From NCBI RefSeq assembly GCF_963676685.1, contig NC_092357.1:5766001-5830000 (forward strand): a stretch of DNA of 64,000 nucleotides, given 5' to 3'. Below the pieces are notes generated by a model. The model was given only the letters and a program-made list of their open reading frames with translations, ran no database searches and had not been told where the DNA came from. Source of the stretch: Mytilus edulis (taxonomy: Eukaryota). The position numbers were made by a program, and so were the translations under genes. Each line of letters starts with the position of its first letter. The first letter of the stretch is position 1. Below, in pieces: positions 2,535-13,981 of the stretch.

Positions 2535-3299
2535 AAAAGAAGAGGGACGAAAGATACCAAAGGGACAGTCAAACTCATAAATCTAAAACAAACTGACAAC
2601 GCCATGGCTAAAAATAAAAAAGACAAACAGAAAAACAATAGTACACACGACACAACATAGAAAACTAAAGAATAAACAACACGAACCCCACCAAAAACTA
2701 GGGGTGATCTCAGGTGCTCCGGAAGGGTAAGCAGATCCTGCTCCACATGTGGCACCCGTCGTGTTGCTTAAGTGATTACAAATCCGGTAAATAGTCTAAT
2801 TCGGTAGGTCATATTCATGAAAGGGAAGGGGATTGTAGTTACGACGTAAGGAACATATCCGATATCATTTGTGAAACGGTTATTCCATAACGGTCAACCA
2901 ACTCGTGATGGCGTCCGTAAAATTTATGAAGGGATGATTTCAACTTCACCATTTCGAACTCTTGGTTTAATAGCTTCCTTGTGAGCAGCAAACCTCTATC
3001 AAGAAAATCATGATAGGAAATGCAAGCACGGGAATATCGTATCAATTGGGAGATATATACCCCGTATGCAGGTGCTGCTGGAATGTTGCTACTTAGAAAT
3101 GGAAAGTTCACAATTGGAAAGCTGAAATCATCTCTTTTGTCGTAAAGTTTTGTTTTCAACCGACCCTTATTGTCAATTTCTAGATGTAAGTCAAGATATG
3201 AAGCCGACTTAACTGTATCTGTAGTATCCTTTATCTCTAGTTCGATTGGATAGATGCGTTCCACATAGTCACCAAATTTTGAATTGTTTAGTGAAAGAA
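2535..3299 (-). mobile_element. 5'-truncated Penelope-like retroelement (RT C-terminus plus 3' UTR), Naiad/Chlamys-like layout
   Basis: ORF 2839..3339 encodes SASYLDL...KLYDKRDDFSFPIVNFPFLSSNIP..PAYGVYISQLIRYSRAC, a PLE RT thumb/C-terminal region. It ends without a GIY-YIG domain and is followed by a ~300-bp UTR repeated throughout the window. Confidence 0.8.
2839..3299 (-). pseudogene. Penelope-like reverse transcriptase C-terminal fragment
   Basis: Motifs YLDL, YDKRDDF, SQLIRY..AC. The N-terminal ~13 aa of the called ORF derive from flanking DNA. Confidence 0.75.
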
Positions 3300-4205
3300 A
3301 ACATTTCTGGGTTATAAACATATATTTTGTGTATGTCAAAGCACCATATTTTTTTTATTTGGGGTTTCTATAGAATATTTTGAAAACTTGAAGTTACATG
3401 ATTACTAAAGCCTGCGCACAGGTAAAAAAAGGTGAAAAATTAATTGGTTAACTTTCAGTGACGGTTATTTTCCTATATGCAATGAATTGTAATGTAAAAT
3501 TGTCTGTATAGTACTTGACAGGGTAAAAATTTAATAATGCCAAATATTTCGTCATTAAAAACAAAGATAAATTCTGCACAATAGTTTGAAAATGCAAATT
3601 TATCAAAGACTAATAGGGGAAATCAATAGTGGTATTACACGTAAAGACTGTACGACCTTAATCAATAAGCAAAATTATACTATGTTCTTAAATATTACAC
3701 TAAATAAAGGCAACAGTAGTATACCGCTGTTCAAAACTCATAAATCCATGGACAAAAAACAAAATCGGGGTAACAAACACTAAATGACTGCAATATATCT
3801 TTACACATAAACTGATTCAATAGGAAAACACTGCAATCGACATTGCAAAGGTCTTACGCCTTAATCCATGGTCATCATCTCGAATTGATTGGAAGGTTAT
3901 CTTAATTCACTAGCCCCATGATTTATCTTCTCGGGTTTTCACAAATGGCAAGTTAAGTATCTTCAATTTTATTATTAAGCACATGTTTCCTTGAATTAAT
4001 CCAGTATTTTTCATTATTCATAAGCAATAATACGACACAATTTTTATATGGTCGAGTTAACCTAAGAAGAATTTTGCTATTCAAATTAGGTATTTTGTAC
4101 ATATAGCTCTTCAACGGTTTCGGTACTTATACATCTTCTGATTTCTTTTTTTTTTTTTTTTTCAATTTTTTTTTTTTTTTTCAAATTTCAAATGTTTGGC
4201 TTTGA

Positions 4206-5242: not shown

Positions 5243-5669
5243 AACACACCTTTGTTAAACAGTTCGTAAAGTATGATTTTGAATAGGATAAAAAAAAATG
5301 TGATGCAAACAATGTTTTATGTTAGTAATATATATCCATCTATTTTTTTTTTATTTCATATACATTTCAAATATTCCGCTAGTGTGTAATGAAGATGAGG
5401 AAATCCTGTTTAAAATGTTTGCAATTAAACCTTAACAAAAGGGCACTTAGAATTGAATTTATAATTATTCATACTTCACTTTGACAATATCCGTATTGTA
5501 TTTTGTTTTGTCTTCATTTTTCTTTTCGTATTTAATACAGACAATAGTTTTAATGGCCTCAAAACGTTCAATATTGAAAGTCCATTATAAAACGACATCG
5601 TTTCCGATAACTAAATGAGGAATATCGAACTGACATGTTTTATTTATCTGTTTAAAGTATTTGACTGTT

Positions 5670-6119
5670 ATAGAATGAAATTCAAAACAGTGTGGCTGTG
5701 GCCATTGATTGACACATTAAATTCATCCATTGACTGGGACAATTTACGTGAACGTTTGTCTGTAACAACCACTGTTCACGACGAACCTACGATAGACATT
5801 TAAACTGTGGGGTCACCAAAGGTTTCTTAACGCCTTTAATTATAAAATAATTCGAAAAATTAATCAGGAATAACCTTTATGTTTTGATTTATATAATTGA
5901 TATAAATCAAAACATCGTGTTATTTCTGATTAATTTTTTCGAATTACTTTTTTAAGGTGTTGAGAACCTTTGGTGACCCAATAGTTTAAGTGTCTTTAAA
6001 TAGTATATAGTGAGCAGTGGTCGTTACATACAAACGTTCACCTAAATTGTCCCAGTCAATGGATGAATTTAATGTGTCAATCAATGGCCACAGCCACACT
6101 GTTTTGAATTTCATTCTAT
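5670..6119. mobile_element. Foldback element / long palindromic MITE (~450 bp)
   Basis: ATAGAATGAAATTCAAAACAGTGTGGCTGTGGCCATTG... is mirrored at 6119 and the arms pair almost to the centre (~5895). This explains the mirror ORFs 5615..5803 and 5986..6201. Confidence 0.9.
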
Positions 6120-6738
6120 TTGTATTATACAATTCCACATAGTTTATACATAATATGTATATTTGAATATGCTTTGTTTGACATCCACAATATTCATGCA
6201 TACTGTCGATTCTTTATTTTAACGCATGACTAGTCACGCACGTTTGTTAAGAAAAAATCGGGTTAGCTTTGTAGCTTTTCAGTATTGAAAGCATTTTGTG
6301 AATGCTTACTCCTAGAATTGCAGTTATATTGGCAGGTATATGCTGATAAATATCGCTTTAAAGTTGTGTTGAGTCACTTCTCCAAAATAAACACTGGTTT
6401 TGATTTTATAAAGCAAAGACTACATTTAATTTATTTTTTAAAGTAGAAAAAAAAACATTATAGTTAGTAAAACATTTCATATATGTTGCTTCGATGAGTG
6501 GAACACAACGAATTACGCAAAAGATTGATAATATTTTTTTTTTTTTTTTTTTTCAACATAATAATATTTATTCATCTAATCTTGCTTGTTACAAGTTTCA
6601 CCAAGAGTCCAAGCTTCTCTTGATTTACCCTGTTACACTCCACTGATTATCCAGGGAAATAAACAGCTGATCAAACTTATTAAGTTATAAAAAATAATAT
6701 AAAGTTGTATAGTTGTCTTATGCAGAGATTTATCAATG

Positions 6739-9700
6739 CTAAAAATTCTTTCTAATTGACAATAATATTGGACATCTTGATTTATATGCATCTATTCTTT
6801 TATTAAATTCATTTTCAAAAATGCTAAAGACATCAACAGTTTTTGTTCTCTGCTCGGATACATAGTATGACTTATATATAGAAAAACTTAATACTGTTAG
6901 TATATAATTCAGAAAATAATAATTACTATCTGTGATTTTATATCCAAATCCCAGATGTTGCAATTTAATATCAAAATCTATTTTACTTCTTCTAAAGAGT
7001 TCATAGATTTTTTGCCAAAATTTATTCAAATATCTACACTTCAAAAAATAGTGAGCATAATCTTCTTCTTGCTTACAAAAATTACATTTATCTGTCTTAG
7101 TTACTTTCCACTGCAATAACAGTTTTTTAGTTGGAACAATATAATGTAATAATTTCCATCTAAATATTTTTAATTTATTTTCAGTCATATATTCAAAAAT
7201 AAATTTGTACAATGAATTCATATTAAGAGTTTCTTGTATTGATAGGATTCTAAGCCATCTGTTTATCCCTATTGACGACTCTAGTTTTGTATTTACCAAA
7301 GAGTTGTATAACATTTTATTTGTTAATAATGTAGTCTCAATAAAATTATTTTTCCATACGATTTTATTTCTCTGAATATTAATTGTAGTTTTGACAGAAC
7401 TCTCTTTTTGAACAATTTGAATCCATTCTACTGGTATAGATTTTTTTAATTTTTGAAACTCGGCGATCCAGTTTATTTTTAACTTTAATTTGTTTAGAAT
7501 GTAGATTTCTGATAATGACATTTTATCATCTAAGATATCATTTATGTAAATTAAATCACTCTTAATCCAGTTCTCAAATATGATTGGTTTATTATCAAAT
7601 TTTATATATTTATTTCCCCATATTACTTGCTTTCTAATATCAAAAAATGTGTCTGGTTGTTTTGTTTGCCCCCCGCCAGTCAAATTCCAAGACTTTATTA
7701 CTTCTTTATAAAACACAGGAATATCTTTAAGATATCTTAAAGATTTGATATCACTAAAATTCATATTAAATATTGACAAAATATTGTTTGAGACATTTAA
7801 GTATTTAAATGGTATAAGCTTCCAAGTCTCAAGTTTACCATTTACCAATCTATTTACCCATGATGCTTTTAAAGCCACAAAATAACTTTTAAAGTCTACC
7901 ATTTTAAGACCCCCCTTCTCATATGGACCAATCATCATGTTTCTTTTAATCTTGTCTGGTTTCCCATCCCAAATATATTTATAGCTACTGTTTTCTATTT
8001 CTTTTATATAATTTTCTGGGGTTAGACATACGCTTCCCAAGAAAGTAAACAAAGGCAATATTAAAGTCTTTATAATTAGGATTTTTCCTAAAATAGAAAG
8101 ATTTCGTTTTTTCCATATCATAAATAATTTATTCATCTTTTCTATTTTACCATTCCAGTTTAACTTTTTGCATTCTTCTTTGTCATGTCCGAAAAACACC
8201 CCTAAAGCTTTAATAGGTTTATCTCCCCACTTAATCCCGACAATTTTATCTTTACAAGATTTCAATTTTCCAATCCATAATCCCTCCGTTTTATTTCTAT
8301 TTAGTAGTAAACCTGAAAAGGAACCAAAAATTTCTATTTCGTTCATTGCAGCTACCACATCGTTTTTATCCTTGCAAAATAGTGTTGTGTCGTCTGCTAA
8401 TTGTGAAATCTTGATACTATGACTTTTCCCATCTAATTTTATATTAATTCCTTTTACATTTTTATTATTTCTTAATCTCTGGGCCATAATTTCAACAGCC
8501 AAAACAAATAAAAGAGCCGATAAAGGACAGCCTTGTCTTATTCCACGTGAATTTTTGAAAGTTTCTGATACCCACCCATTGTTCATAACACATGTTTGTA
8601 TATCTGTGTACATTGCTTTAACCCAGTTAATAAATGAATCGTTAAAACCAAAATGTTTCAATGTTCCAAACATAAAATCCCATTCCAATGAATCGAACGC
8701 TTTTGTAAAATCTACAAAAACTAATGCCCCCTTAATATTATATGTGTCTGCGTAGTCTATTACATCTTGAATTTGTCTCAAATTAAACCCAATAAATCTG
8801 TTTTTAACATAACCGGTTTGGTCTTCATTTATAATTTTTGGCAGTACCTTTTTTAATCTTTGAGCTAGAACATATGACAAAAGTTTAAAATCTACATTTA
8901 GAAGTGAAATTGGACGGTAGTTTTCCAAAAGTAAAGGATCTCCTTTTTTAAATATTAAAGTTAATATACTGGTACGTTGTGAGTATGATAAACTTTGTTT
9001 ATCGTAGCCAGTATTTAGAACATCCACAACTAAAAATTTAAGTTTATCCCAAAATTGTCTATAAAATTCAACCGTTAGACCATCAAGCCCTGGTGATTTA
9101 TTTAGTTTCATTTTATAAATGCCTTGCGTGCATTCCTCTACTGTAACTTTTCCATCGCATATCAGTTTATCCTTTTCGTCTACTTGATTTTCTAATTTTG
9201 TGTCATTGATATATTTTTCAGTTAAATTTTTATTTGCAGATTTTACATTATACAAGTTTTCATAGAAATTTTTTATTTTATGGAGTAAATTTTCTTGATT
9301 AGTAATTAATTCCCCATCATCTCCTTTTAGTTTGCTTATTGATTTTTTCACTTGCCTCTTCTTTTCTAGACCGAGGAAGTAGGAATTGTTCTTTTCCCCA
9401 AACTCAACCCATTTTTCTCTAGATCTAATTTGTGCCCCTCTTGCCTTTTCGTCATAAATGTTACTTAATTCTTTTTCTATATCTTTAATTTCTTTTTCCA
9501 AATTTTGATTTTCATCATTATTTCTCTCATCTATAAGTTCCATCTTTTGTTCCAGATCTTGTTCTAAACTACGCCTTCGCTCTCTTGTTAACTTCGCTTT
9601 ATTTCTACAGTAAGTTGTAGTTACTTCCCTTACCTCGATTTTAAATCCATCCCATAAAAGCCTACAATCTATTGAGTCTTTTTTAAATGTATATTTATCA

Positions 9701-10521
9701 ATTAAACATTTTATACATTCTTGATAATCTTTATTTTGTTATACTGAGTTATTTATTTTCCAATACCCATTTCCCCTTTCTGATAACCCTGGCTTAAATT
9801 TTAAAAATACACTTTGGTGATCAGTAGACTGTTTAACAGCCGGTTTAATTTTACACCATTCTATAAGAGGTAAAAATTCTGACCCAATAAAAATCATGTC
9901 TAGTCTACTAGCTTGTGATTTATCCTTTCTTCTCCATGTAAATTGCTGTTTATTTGTGTTTAAATTTCTCCAAACATCCGTTAATTTGTTAGTTTTTATT
10001 AATTGCTTTAATCCGTTAACAGGTTGAATAAATTTACCAGTACATAAAGACTTTCTATCGATTGGTTTAAGTGCATCATTAAAATCTCCCCCTAGTATAT
10101 GTATACCAAGACTGTATTCTTTCAAATTATCGCTTACTTTTTAAAAAAAAGAATTTCTTGAAGTTTTACAGTTCGGTGCATATATGCTGGAAAATGTGAA
10201 AATAGTATTATTTAATTGCACATTAATAAGTATAAATCTCCCTTCACTATCACTAAATTTATTTATAAATTCAAAGCTCAGTGACTTTTTAATTAAAATA
10301 GCTACACCCCTACTAGCTGTTGTACCGTTACTGCAAAAAGTTTCATATTCTGTTTTATTTTTAATTTCTCTTTCAATATTTTCGTCAAAATGTGTTTCTT
10401 GTAAAAATGTAATTTGACTTTTCTGTGCTTTTATCCATTCTATTACTCTATTCCTTTTCCCTCTAGAACCGATGCCGTTAACATTGAGATTACATAAGTT
10501 AATTGTATGTGCTAAAGCCAT
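6739..10521 (-). pseudogene. LINE ORF2 (APE endonuclease - reverse transcriptase - CCHC zinc finger), ~1260 codons with two in-frame TAA stops
   Basis: Track ORFs 10141..10521, 9739..10125 and 6739..9543 are all in one frame, separated only by TAA at 10141-10143 and 9739-9741. APE motifs NVNGI, LQETH, IYAPN, GGDFN, SRLD, TDH; RT motifs KSPGLDG, YRPISLLN, DFTKAFD, GIRQGCPLS, QLADD; C-terminal CNFC..EEDYAHYFLKC. Confidence 0.95.
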
Positions 10522-11707
10522 TATTAAAGTTACAAATTAATGATCTTATTAGCTTTGATATATTAACTATAGCATGCATAGTACTGCTCATATTTACTAT
10601 AAGATTGACATAAATATACATCATTTTAATAAAGTCATATTTATAGCACAATTTTCTATAAAATAAAAACATATAATATTTACCAGTAGTTATACCCTGG
10701 TGTGACCTCCACATAATTATTGATACGCTACTAAACCACGGGTCTATCGTGTGCCCTTTAATACATGTTGATACATACCAATAAAGATAATTGGCTAAGT
10801 TCAGAAAAAAGACATACATAAATTTTATACATTCCCTGTGTGAACTATGTGCTTTCGATTTTGTATACAATCTATTCGATATTTTATTTATCAACGCATT
10901 ATGTATTCGATTAAGTTGTGTAATGGAATATCTTTGTGAAAGTTCGAAACAAAAAGATTCTTCCGCTTTGTGTGTGCATGATGATGTAATTGTATTTACA
11001 AGTCTGCCAATTTTATAAGACAAAATTTCAACCGGGATATAAGTGATTTGTGTATTATACACTTCTACACTGCTTTGCATCTTTAGCTCAACAAATTGAA
11101 TCTGAAGTTTATCAAGTGTTGGATTGTATAAATATGTGTGCGGTTTTTCAATCAATTGTTTTGGATTATATAACCATGAGTGGTTCATGTGACCATATCT
11201 ATATTTTGCAGGTAAGTAACTATTTTTTATAAACATTTTATTATCGTATGTTTTATTGAATTTCAGGTGTTGTTGAGAAAATGTTGTACTGAGACTAACG
11301 AATCTCGTGTATGGCTTATCGTTGATTGACACTGCGTGTTGTGTTACTAAAAATAGCATAGGTAAAAACCCAAATAGTCTACTTGTTTTGATAATATTGA
11401 ACAGCTGATTTCTAAAAGTTTGTTCTATACAAGATTGTTCTATACGAGAGTCATTACTATAACTTTCAATAGTTTTGTAGCAATTTGTACATATTGATTT
11501 TACTACTAAGTCGTTAATCTGTCTAAAGATTGTTATACCCGTACATAATATTGGTACATAGAAGACATATAGTATTTTAACAACTTTTAACACATTCAAT
11601 TTTATCACATTCAATTTGTTACATCTGTTATACACTTCTCTACAACATGATTGAACTCTTTCAAAGAGCTTAAAACTTTTATATACTTTTATTAAAATTT
11701 TTTTCAT
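10499..11707 (-). CDS. Extra 402-aa ORF of unknown function between LINE ORF1 and ORF2, predicted membrane-associated
   Basis: ATG-initiated and uninterrupted for 402 codons in very AT-rich DNA; inside the TSD-bounded element; overlaps the ORF2 start by 23 nt; several hydrophobic stretches; no recognised domain. Confidence 0.75.
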   Translation of the reverse strand: MKKILIKVYKSFKLFERVQSCCREVYNRCNKLNVIKLNVLKVVKILYVFYVPILCTGITIFRQINDLVVKSICTNCYKTIESYSNDSRIEQSCIEQTFRNQLFNIIKTSRLFGFLPMLFLVTQHAVSINDKPYTRFVSLSTTFSQQHLKFNKTYDNKMFIKNSYLPAKYRYGHMNHSWLYNPKQLIEKPHTYLYNPTLDKLQIQFVELKMQSSVEVYNTQITYIPVEILSYKIGRLVNTITSSCTHKAEESFCFELSQRYSITQLNRIHNALINKISNRLYTKSKAHSSHRECIKFMYVFFLNLANYLYWYVSTCIKGHTIDPWFSSVSIIMWRSHQGITTGKYYMFLFYRKLCYKYDFIKMMYIYVNLIVNMSSTMHAIVNISKLIRSLICNFNNGFSTYN

Positions 11708-11918
11708 GTATTTGATATAAAATAAAATTTCAGCAAAACAAAAAAGTAAGCTGAGACATATAAAACATTCACTTATGTTTTTTTATGTATGATTGGTTAA
11801 CTCTTAATCTGAGCTTGAATTTGTTGTACATATTTTAAATATTTTTGTAGTTTAATTTATATGATAAAACTATAATACAATCCTTTAATGTCATTAAGAT
11901 ATTAATTTGAACATTTGA

Positions 11919-13208
11919 TTATGCTTTAGCTTTTTTAGTTCCATGAACTCCAGTAGTTTTCTCATGTAGAGCTTCAGTTGGTGTTGGTGGTGTTCTGTCT
12001 CCTGCATTAACTGTTCTTCTATGTGGTGTTCTGACAAACCTCTCCATAGATGGTTGTGTTTTGTCTGTGTTACCACTATTGCTAAGATTGGTTTTTTGTT
12101 GTCCTGACTTGTTTGCATGTTTCTTGCTACCACCTTTTGTGTTTTCAGATGTTTTTGAAGAAGGAGATTTTGTTGGAGTTTTTGTAAGTTCTACACTCTC
12201 CTCCTGTACATTGTCATCACCAGACTCCATGCAATTCTGCTCTAATTGCTGATTATTCTCATCTTTGTCCTGGAAGTTTTTTTGACAGTCAATCATTTTG
12301 TGTCCACTCTCTTTGCAAATTTTACAAGCCCAATCATTAGGGCACTGGAACAGCATATGTCCTGGTTGAAGGCATTTGTGACAAATTCTTTCTTCTGAAT
12401 TGTTATTTCTGTTTTCGAATTCAGGTTGGCCTGAATGGAAAATTCTGCCCATGTATTTTCCAATTTGCAAATTTCTAGGTATAGGTTTATCTAGTGTCTT
12501 GCTAATCACTAGTCTATCACCAGTCTCACAGTTGGTTACTTTTCCGTCTATGCGCAAACGCTCCCTAAACAATCCCTGAATTTTACAGCCTTGAAGGGAT
12601 AGGGCTCGATGTATTTGCCCATCGTCCGCAGAAAGGGGGATGTTCTTCACCTTTATGCGGATTGTGTCACTTTGTAACGTAGATGGATTGTGAGGGTTTT
12701 GTGAGAGAAGGGGTACTTGCCTGCCACGTAAGTTTAACCCCTGTACTAACAAAGACAGTCTGTCGCCCTCATTGTCCATGTATATACGCCACATCTCTCT
12801 TATTCTTTGTATCCCCTTAATGCACTCTTCTGGGACTTTAGCACCAATTGACTTGTATATTTCGACATTTGTGAGCCATTGGGTGCGAGGAGGTTTGACC
12901 GAGCCATGAACATCTTGATCTTTCAAGAAAATAGGTTTTACAAAATCGCCCGGGTCACTTTGTTCTCTTGGTGCTTTATAGTGAGTATTATTCTCTGTAT
13001 ATGATTGATCAGATTGAATGTTACTTTGATTTTTGTGAATATCTGAAACTGCCTCGGCGTACGTCGCCATTTTGTCATTGTTTACATCTGAACTGACCGT
13101 CGCTTCATTTTGTAATGTAAATGTATCAGTACCCTGTAGACCTTCTATAAGCCTTTGAAGGCGATCCTGAGTCATTTTTCTGCATAATGCTTCTACTTCT
13201 GCATTCAT
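11919..13208 (-). CDS. LINE ORF1 nucleic-acid-binding protein (Tx1-type: RRM-like region plus two CCHC zinc knuckles)
   Basis: 429 aa; CHKCLQPGHMLFQC and CKICKESGHKMIDC knuckles; IRIKVKNIP...ETGDRLV segment typical of Tx1/L1 ORF1; low-complexity S/T/K tail. Confidence 0.9.
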   Translation of the reverse strand: MNAEVEALCRKMTQDRLQRLIEGLQGTDTFTLQNEATVSSDVNNDKMATYAEAVSDIHKNQSNIQSDQSYTENNTHYKAPREQSDPGDFVKPIFLKDQDVHGSVKPPRTQWLTNVEIYKSIGAKVPEECIKGIQRIREMWRIYMDNEGDRLSLLVQGLNLRGRQVPLLSQNPHNPSTLQSDTIRIKVKNIPLSADDGQIHRALSLQGCKIQGLFRERLRIDGKVTNCETGDRLVISKTLDKPIPRNLQIGKYMGRIFHSGQPEFENRNNNSEERICHKCLQPGHMLFQCPNDWACKICKESGHKMIDCQKNFQDKDENNQQLEQNCMESGDDNVQEESVELTKTPTKSPSSKTSENTKGGSKKHANKSGQQKTNLSNSGNTDKTQPSMERFVRTPHRRTVNAGDRTPPTPTEALHEKTTGVHGTKKAKA

Positions 13209-13493
13209 TTTCAGCTTTTTCCAACTAGTTAAATCACTTTTTTATGGAGTATTGTACGATACGTCTTAACATATCAAGGGACGTTACTCTAAAGATTGAT
13301 AATATTTATTTTATATTCATACCTGTAAATATATAAATATAAATAGGTTTTTTAATATTAAGATGTTAATACTTCAAATCACTCTCTTCAGTCAAACAGA
13401 AAACCAGCATGGTACCAGCATGGTACCGATTTATCATGGCATAGATCATATTTATGAGTGACTAGTTAATTTATTTCATAATTTAGGATATAC

Positions 13494-13728
13494 GAGGGCC
13501 CTCATGGGGTTTTTGATTATGTGATTACTTGGCCGTTTTTTTAATGATTATTTGATTATTAAGCCAAATATTTCATGATTATTTGATTACCTAGGACTGT
13601 ATTTTTAGTTTATGGTTATTTGATTACTAAAGATAAGCGAATATTTAATGATTATGTGATTATATTGGCAAAAAAATGGTGATTATGTGATTACTAGGAC
13701 CCCCCCCCCCCCCCCCATGAGGGGCCTC
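13494..13728. mobile_element. MITE with 6-bp TSD and internal tandem TGATTA(T/C) repeats
   Basis: TIR GAGGGCCCTCATGGGG / CCCCATGAGGGGCCTC; ATATAC at 13488..13493 and 13729..13734; about six copies of tgattat(g/t)tgatta at ~30-bp spacing. Confidence 0.85.
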
Positions 13729-13981
13729 ATATACGGCCGATATGACGTCTTACACTTTACTAATTACAATTAAAAGAAGAAGCAAAACAGAACAACGAAA
13801 TAACACTCAACAAAAACGACAACATACATAGAAACGGACTATGTAAAAATAAAATGCAATATTTTTATCAACTACACCGAATGTGTAAGATTGAGCAGCA
13901 GCCTGGAATTGATAAAATCATTTAGAGTATAGTAATAAGTCTTAATTTGTAAAAACAAAATACACTATCCATAGCATTTGC

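Follow-up and report, generated by a model that had tools for sequence, protein, structure and literature searches.

The canonical L1/Tx1 elements contain two ORFs with a non-coding or short spacer, whereas in the lineage described here a third sense ORF was found to fill the spacer clade-wide. Long intergenic regions have been reported in vertebrate L1 elements, including those of fish, frog and lizard (257-1032 bp) as well as megabat and afrotheria (PMC5381506, PMC4072516; these and the other papers are cited from the sections available). In the megabat L1, removal of the spacer AUGs was reported to cut retrotransposition ~3.3-fold, and the persistence of the spacer was considered hard to explain by the authors (PMC4072516). 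The translation of ORF2 from the LINE RNA and the retention of long spacers that would be expected to block reinitiation are an open question in these sources (PMC5381506, PMC4072516). In a reviewed model, termination-reinitiation accounts for the translation of L1 ORF2, and an overlap of the form UAAUG is employed by SART1 (PMC5972666). A 19-bp poly(A) was described between the ORFs of Zorro3 (PMC3956500). Transmembrane (TM) ORF3s, which are env-like extra genes, are carried by bdelloid LTR elements (PMC5408684), and the RNA of Ty1 is localised to the ER by SRP via the nascent chain (PMC3945221).

The DNA analysed here (the window) is a stretch of 64,000 nucleotides of Mytilus edulis (contig NC_092357.1, positions 5,766,001 to 5,830,000). 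It was found to contain a TSD-bounded and poly(A)-tailed LINE without LTRs, with three sense ORFs on the minus strand (Table 1). The element shares with L1/Tx1 the ORF2 with APE followed by RT and a C-terminal zf-RVT, the CCHC ORF1, the TSD and the poly(A) tail. The best PDB match of ORF2 was the human L1 ORF2p (E 4e-65, vs 5e-17 for R2). The ORF1 core matched a protein with a Mytilus edulis name at 100% identity, and other ORF1 relatives carried names from further Mytilus species and Pinctada. Public contigs from two sequencing runs were found to diverge from the window stretch behind position 13289.

Table 1. Features of the three-ORF LINE in the window (positions of the window)
Feature	Position	Strand	Basis or remark
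5′ target-site duplication, 17 nt	13291..13307	-	repeat match to 6520..6536
Short 5′ UTR	13209..13290	-	between TSD and ORF1 ATG
ORF1, 429 aa, two CCHC knuckles (PF00098)	11919..13208	-	Pfam match
AT-rich leader, 87 nt, from ORF1 stop to middle-ORF ATG	11832..11918	-	
Middle ORF, family form (443-449 codons in three sister copies)	10499..11831	-	
A-run with one extra base in the window copy (frameshift)	11778..11784	-	alignment to sister copies
Hydrophobic segment at the N-terminus, then a lysine cluster (putative signal anchor)	11714..11767	-	upstream of ATG 11707
402-codon ORF, truncated and freely drifting body of the middle ORF	10499..11707	-	
Overlap of ORF2 start and middle-ORF stop, 23 nt (putative termination-reinitiation site)	10499..10521	-	
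ORF2 with APE endonuclease, RT and zf-RVT	6739..10521	-	ATG 10521
3′ UTR	6534..6738	-	AATAAA 6572-6567; poly(A) tail 6553-6534
3′ target-site duplication, 17 nt	6520..6536	-	first A's overlap poly(A) tail

The initial annotation had reported a 402-codon ATG-initiated ORF between ORF1 and ORF2, and this ORF was confirmed inside the element. A chance origin was rightly judged not credible, as ~37 stops were expected from shuffles of the middle-ORF DNA of a sister copy. The other five frames of that DNA contained 20-51 stops, and the longest open stretch in 6800 shuffled spacers was 54 codons at the median and 167 at most. The ORF had also been called intact, and this needs correction, as an extra A near 11778-11784 shifts the frame at the 5′ end. 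In three 99%-identical (98-99%) sister copies, the middle ORF was found to contain 443-449 codons from an ATG at window position 11831, and the 402-aa ORF of the window lacks the N-terminal hydrophobic segment because the extra A breaks the frame. The ORF2 of the window contained two in-frame stops (10143-10141 and 9741-9739), both copy-specific, and that of the sister copies was open over 1259-1260 codons.

The leader of the window copy was found to contain a 6-codon mini-ORF (ATG 11914) with its stop overlapping (UAAUG) a 19-codon mini-ORF (ATG 11894), which stops 3 nt ahead of the middle-ORF ATG; this chain links the ORF1 stop to the middle AUG and is possibly due to chance. Outside the LINE, short ORFs on opposite strands (5615-5803, plus strand, and 5986-6201, minus strand) were found to share a stretch of ~25 residues, and this inverted duplication just 3′ of the LINE is probably a MITE-like repeat. 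Upstream of the LINE (~13490-13735), a MITE-like segment of ~240 nt with terminal inverted repeats and internal short repeats was found. A 171-codon open frame at 2839-3354 (minus strand) resembles a fragment of another retroelement, possibly a Penelope-like one.

The genome search with ORF1 listed 150 matches, of which 79 were fetched; with one further copy and the window copy, these make 81 elements. The 79 copies were hand-picked to span the identity range, and rows without stops were favoured. Both the ORF1 stop and the endonuclease were located in 70/81 elements, with spacers of 614-1777 nt and four longer ones that were not scored as intact. A single frame over at least 80% of the 0.6-1.8 kb spacer was found in 33/34 elements with ORF2 open over at least 900 codons, a count that takes in L143, whose middle frame runs into a broken ORF2, L168, whose frame is split, and three copies with a near-end lesion. 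Among the elements with a broken ORF2, a frame of this coverage was found in 21/36. The spacer frame was present down to 38% ORF1 and ~60% RT identity. Among 14 further copies, one long middle ORF was present in 6 and the split form in 3, whereas 4 were broken and 1 had no ORF2. In the RT tree, the 27 core rows were found to form one clade (support 99/99), set apart from the other LINEs of the genome (outgroups: 20 fetched of the 151 endonuclease matches listed); the CCHC ORF1 is as expected of the Tx1 subclade, of which the group may be a member (the tree contains no named Tx1 reference).

The distant L1/Tx1 families (RT 38-42%) were found to contain spacers of 360-640 nt with 95-144 open codons (p<=0.001 in three tested), and their frames ended 3 to 81 nt ahead of the ORF2 AUG. 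Short hydrophobic spacer ORFs of 93-143 aa ending near the ORF2 AUG were seen in L189/L192, L202, L206 and L207 of these distant families. L204 and L205 contained little or no spacer, and L200 and L201 contained no ORF1 to anchor one. The same layout was found in a metagenome contig (L174, ORF1 69%) with a 313-codon middle ORF and an intact ORF2, and five metagenome loci (L175, L178, L179, L182, L185) were broken or too short for scoring. It is likely that the spacer-frame layout occurs outside mussels too.

In L143 (1752-4511, element orientation), the middle frame was found to be joined in frame to ORF2, with 919 codons followed by a stop; ORF2 stays separate in its sister copies L212 and L146. 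In six elements (L188, L190, L194, L195, L199, L205), ORF2 starts at or shortly after the ORF1 stop, followed by the presence of a short hydrophobic leader before the endonuclease; five belong to another LINE clade and one to an L1-like family without a spacer ORF. These leaders are possibly the same device fused to ORF2. A database protein (P0081) contained middle-ORF sequence in its first ~90 residues and an unrelated C-terminus, and reflects either exonisation or a chimeric gene prediction.

An open frame between ORF1 and ORF2 is maintained by selection. In the DNA alignments of five pairs, the indels in multiples of three numbered 19/19 (L153/L155), 4/4, 3/3, 12/14 and 11/17, and the non-triplet indels of four close pairs lie near the ORF ends. 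The two most diverged pairs (6/12 and 4/18 triplet indels at 56-59% nucleotide identity) align unreliably. Two additional in-frame indels were found in the public contigs. When the observed substitutions were placed randomly in a neutral simulation, the frame was open in 0/300 runs for three of six pairs, and it stayed open in 0.3-8% for the three closer pairs.

The middle ORF begins past an A-rich stretch of 30 nt (A 0.53-0.57), and the distance from the ORF1 stop to its start has a median of 83 nt. Its stop was found within -50..+45 nt of the ORF2 AUG in 29/30 elements with open ORF2; stop/start overlaps of 4 nt (AUGA) and 8 nt were common, the overlap in the window is 23 nt, and several families have the stop 34-47 nt upstream of the ORF2 AUG. 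The ATG of ORF2 itself is retained, with A at -3 in 17/21, and the spacers contained 17-49 AUGs. Unlike in TURBS-type reinitiation, the UGGGA core was absent in the 100 nt ahead of the stop (0/24 families), and no conserved RNA structure was found by folding at either start site (mean z -0.09 to +0.26). The search of Rfam gave no match. Contigs were taken from four runs presumed to be RNA, and in those of two runs the middle ORF and ORF2 were bridged and no joint removes the spacer; one joint in one run, with sides of 21 nt, was not counted as splicing. In one family (L117), an unusually stable RNA hairpin (z -6.5) was predicted at nucleotides 300-440 of the middle ORF. A programmed frameshift into ORF2 is less likely because ORF2 keeps its own ATG, mostly in A(-3) context. 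An apparent relay in L174, in which an AUGA overlap leads into a 41-codon ORF, was not counted as support, since an A-run precedes it and a frameshift at the level of this copy may be the cause.

The body of the middle ORF was found to be without detectable amino-acid constraint. In a codon-blind alignment of seven pairs, the differences at codon positions 1/2/3 numbered 395/402/413 (p=0.82), compared with 199/169/520 in ORF1. Over 14 between-subfamily pairs, which are not independent, the middle ORF had a pairwise MG94 dN/dS of 0.43-1.27; the range was 0.12-0.27 in ORF1 and 0.04-0.28 in ORF2. The ratio of the middle ORF was indistinguishable from 1 in 11/14 of these pairs, and the three pairs below 1 were those with the greatest divergence, at which an alignment guided by protein pulls the ratio downwards. 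Two of the 8 close pairs were significantly below 1, namely L092/L091 (0.26 on 11 differences; the family of the window LINE) and L157/L162 (0.24), and two others had a dN/dS of 3-5 on few changes. A ratio near 1, or random stops and frameshifts in other copies, had been named by the initial annotation as evidence against its reading; the ratio was near 1 over the ORF body, yet random stops and frameshifts were absent, a combination that the annotation had not anticipated.

The middle ORF's amino-acid composition was correlated with its off-frames (r 0.98) and with ORF2 (r 0.83). Families with more than 70% RT identity can have unalignable middle proteins, the length of which was 202-549 aa, and the last 40 codons were the fastest changing. 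No usable match was obtained from the ESM Atlas, an uninformative result, and AlphaFold on a 5-sequence alignment gave a mean pLDDT of 29.9 and no confident fold, which is likewise uninformative. No relatives were found in the viral or prokaryote-genome collections.

The four hydrophobic stretches, N-x-S/T sequons and cysteines of the 402-codon ORF had been described as features of a membrane-like ORF. Just 1/4 of the stretches exceeded the Kyte-Doolittle value of 1.8 (19-residue window), and the sequons, cysteines and internal hydrophobic stretches match what AT-rich DNA yields. Cysteine was present at 4.3% in frame vs 4.3% off frame. U-rich DNA readily gives TM-like peptides, and this yield is illustrated here by the internal TM-like stretches of 24 families, which numbered 33 in frame, 35 in the +1 frame and 13 in the +2 frame. 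An env-like or multi-pass glycoprotein was not borne out, as no conserved TM segments, cysteines or fusion-protein homology were found under purifying selection. Of the proposed tricistronic lineage encoding a membrane protein, the three-ORF lineage stands, whereas a conserved multi-pass or env-like product does not. A membrane role is possible solely for the N-terminal ~50 residues, which lie outside the 402-codon ORF.

The first 40-60 codons encode a hydrophobic segment followed by lysines and are under weak protein-level constraint. The N-terminal hydropathy was found to be at or above z 0 against stop-free shuffles in 21/21 families, with scoring windows picked blind to the frame, and its mean z was 0.95 vs 0.14 in 104 control windows. 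The third-position changes exceeded those at the second position (168 vs 129, p=0.013; 14 overlapping pairs). This signal is modest, and the families scored are related. On these sequence features, the start of the middle ORF may encode a signal anchor. A split family (L167, L168, L208-L211), in which copies with intact ORF2 occur, contained a shared stop after ~50 codons in 5/6 members, and the sixth stops nearby. An A-rich tract comes next, and then a second ORF of ~300 codons that again begins with a hydrophobic segment, giving four ORFs. The fixed split implies that a chain of ORFs is tolerated and, barring readthrough of the stop, that this family can do without a single protein.

About even credence is given to the reading that the spacer is translated and hands ribosomes on to ORF2 through termination-reinitiation, and that it probably begins with a signal anchor. 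Ribosomes leaving ORF1 would reinitiate at the middle AUG, and translation of the middle frame would move them over 0.6-1.8 kb in one step, past the spacer AUGs that would otherwise capture a scanning subunit. Since 17-49 AUGs rule out efficient scanning, one long frame would bring the ribosome up to where ORF2 begins. With termination next to the ORF2 AUG, reinitiation would become possible there, giving ORF2p in cis and at low dose. In the least certain step, the nascent N-terminus would act as signal anchor and dock the LINE RNA, while under translation, at the ER or the nuclear envelope before ORF2p is synthesised, and the remainder of the frame would serve as tether and timer. The spacer may be retained because the anchor would emerge and engage SRP only when translation goes on downstream of it. 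A second possible reason is that two reinitiations would lower the ORF2p dose, and a lower dose has been argued for other LINEs (PMC3894237). The fullest form is a sacrificial, sequence-free ORF in which the anchor docks the RNA at the membrane of the ER or nuclear envelope, the length times the delivery of ribosomes and ORF2p is made there in cis; it is put forward tentatively and judged more doubtful than its core. If true, the short spacer ORFs and the hydrophobic ORF2 leaders would represent a single general step by which LINE translation is targeted to membranes.

The frame and stop-position evidence would also suit a spacer that serves purely as a ribosome conduit or dose timer, in which only translation and the position of the stop count and the hydrophobic start arises incidentally from a U-rich RNA signal behind the AUG. 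Such a conduit model explains the frame, the stop position and the indifference to sequence, and it agrees with the peak of U content (0.51) at 15-30 nt downstream of the middle AUG and with the first 40 codons, which in close pairs were conserved at all three positions (syn/nonsyn 9/31); the latter is compatible with RNA-level constraint too. It leaves unexplained why the spacer has not just been lost by deletion. The U at the N-terminus favours codon position 2 (0.64 vs 0.53 and 0.54), the in-frame hydropathy was above both stop-free shuffles and both off-frames, and the pattern hydrophobic-lysine-CD-x-I-x-D-x-I-H was found to align across nine sequences; against these, the pure conduit or dose timer is regarded as unlikely. 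A distinctly unlikely reading is an accessory protein of full length, membrane-bound or secreted, that either evolves rapidly in an arms race or is loosely constrained in its physicochemical properties. The length of at least 180 aa throughout the core clade, the signal-like N-terminus, the dN/dS significantly below 1 in 5/22 pairs overall and the excess of TM-like segments over shuffles in 4/24 families (p<0.05) would suit such a protein. The dN of the middle ORF was at or below the flanking dS, which argues against an arms race, and the change was equal at the three codon positions. No Pfam family was found for the window ORF or for any of 24/24 middle ORFs, and protein searches, including 1.84 billion representatives, gave alleles and fragments of the own family only. 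Among 18 family groups (153 HHalign pairs), no body-length homology was found but short matches, the best ones N-terminal. The fixed split in one family and the arbitrary C-termini also count against a full-length product.

An open frame without protein constraint would also be accounted for if the spacer is translated to avoid nonsense-mediated decay and ORF2 is started independently from an IRES or a separate RNA; IRES-like elements were computationally predicted in the long vertebrate L1 spacers (PMC5381506). ORF2 itself would be a longer untranslated stretch for most ribosomes, the region upstream of the ORF2 AUG contained no structure (mean z +0.26) and no Rfam match, and the presumed-RNA contigs bridge the two ORFs with the spacer retained, so this protective role is considered very unlikely. 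The frame joined to ORF2 in L143 is the one point in favour of an N-terminal extension of ORF2, which the initial annotation had listed, along with a captured host exon and a nested element of one copy, among the alternatives to be ruled out. The ORF was found to be open in relatives clade-wide, the ORF2 frame was closed 0-15 codons upstream of its own conserved ATG in 24/24, and ORF2 is separate in L212 and L146; chance, a host exon, a nested element and an extension can practically be dismissed.

The lineage with the proposed translated spacers comprises dozens of independently diverged and recently active families, and forms a natural experiment in which the frame and the stop position were kept and the protein body was free. 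It would be a clean case of selection acting on translation and not on the protein, and the production of reverse transcriptase by such elements can be tested directly on it. It also gives a caution for the annotation of long hydrophobic orphan ORFs in AT-rich genomes, and the spacer frames are possible raw material for new genes.

No description of a sense ORF between ORF1 and ORF2 in L1/Tx1 was found in the literature searched, a scope outside which Repbase, Dfam and subscription journals lie. The available sections of PMC5203782, PMC5381506, PMC7140322, PMC10294476, PMC11203168, PMC5408684 and PMC3956500 do not mention such an ORF, and the bivalve library or supplements of PMC10294476 could hold one. 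The three-ORF L1/Tx1 lineage is apparently undescribed. The ORF0 of primate L1 is likewise a third ORF in an L1, but it is antisense, contains 71 aa and lies in the 5′ UTR (PMC5203782). The ORF3 or env of LTR elements shares the presence of an additional hydrophobic ORF in a retroelement, whereas these third ORFs are, in the sections available, typically expressed from spliced RNA and contain alignable motifs, and the ORF described here lies between ORF1 and ORF2 of a LINE with a body that is not conserved. Ty1 offers an analogy for the docking step of the putative signal anchor, although Ty1 uses Gag itself. The vertebrate long-spacer L1s share a long spacer of unexplained persistence; it is treated as non-coding or as containing small ORFs or a predicted IRES, and the sections available report no selected frame spanning it, in contrast to the frame found here. 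In SART1, human L1, caliciviruses and influenza B (PMC5972666), a stop adjoins or overlaps the downstream AUG as in the present elements, whereas the upstream ORF encodes a functional protein in those systems and a dedicated, mostly sequence-free ORF is interposed here.
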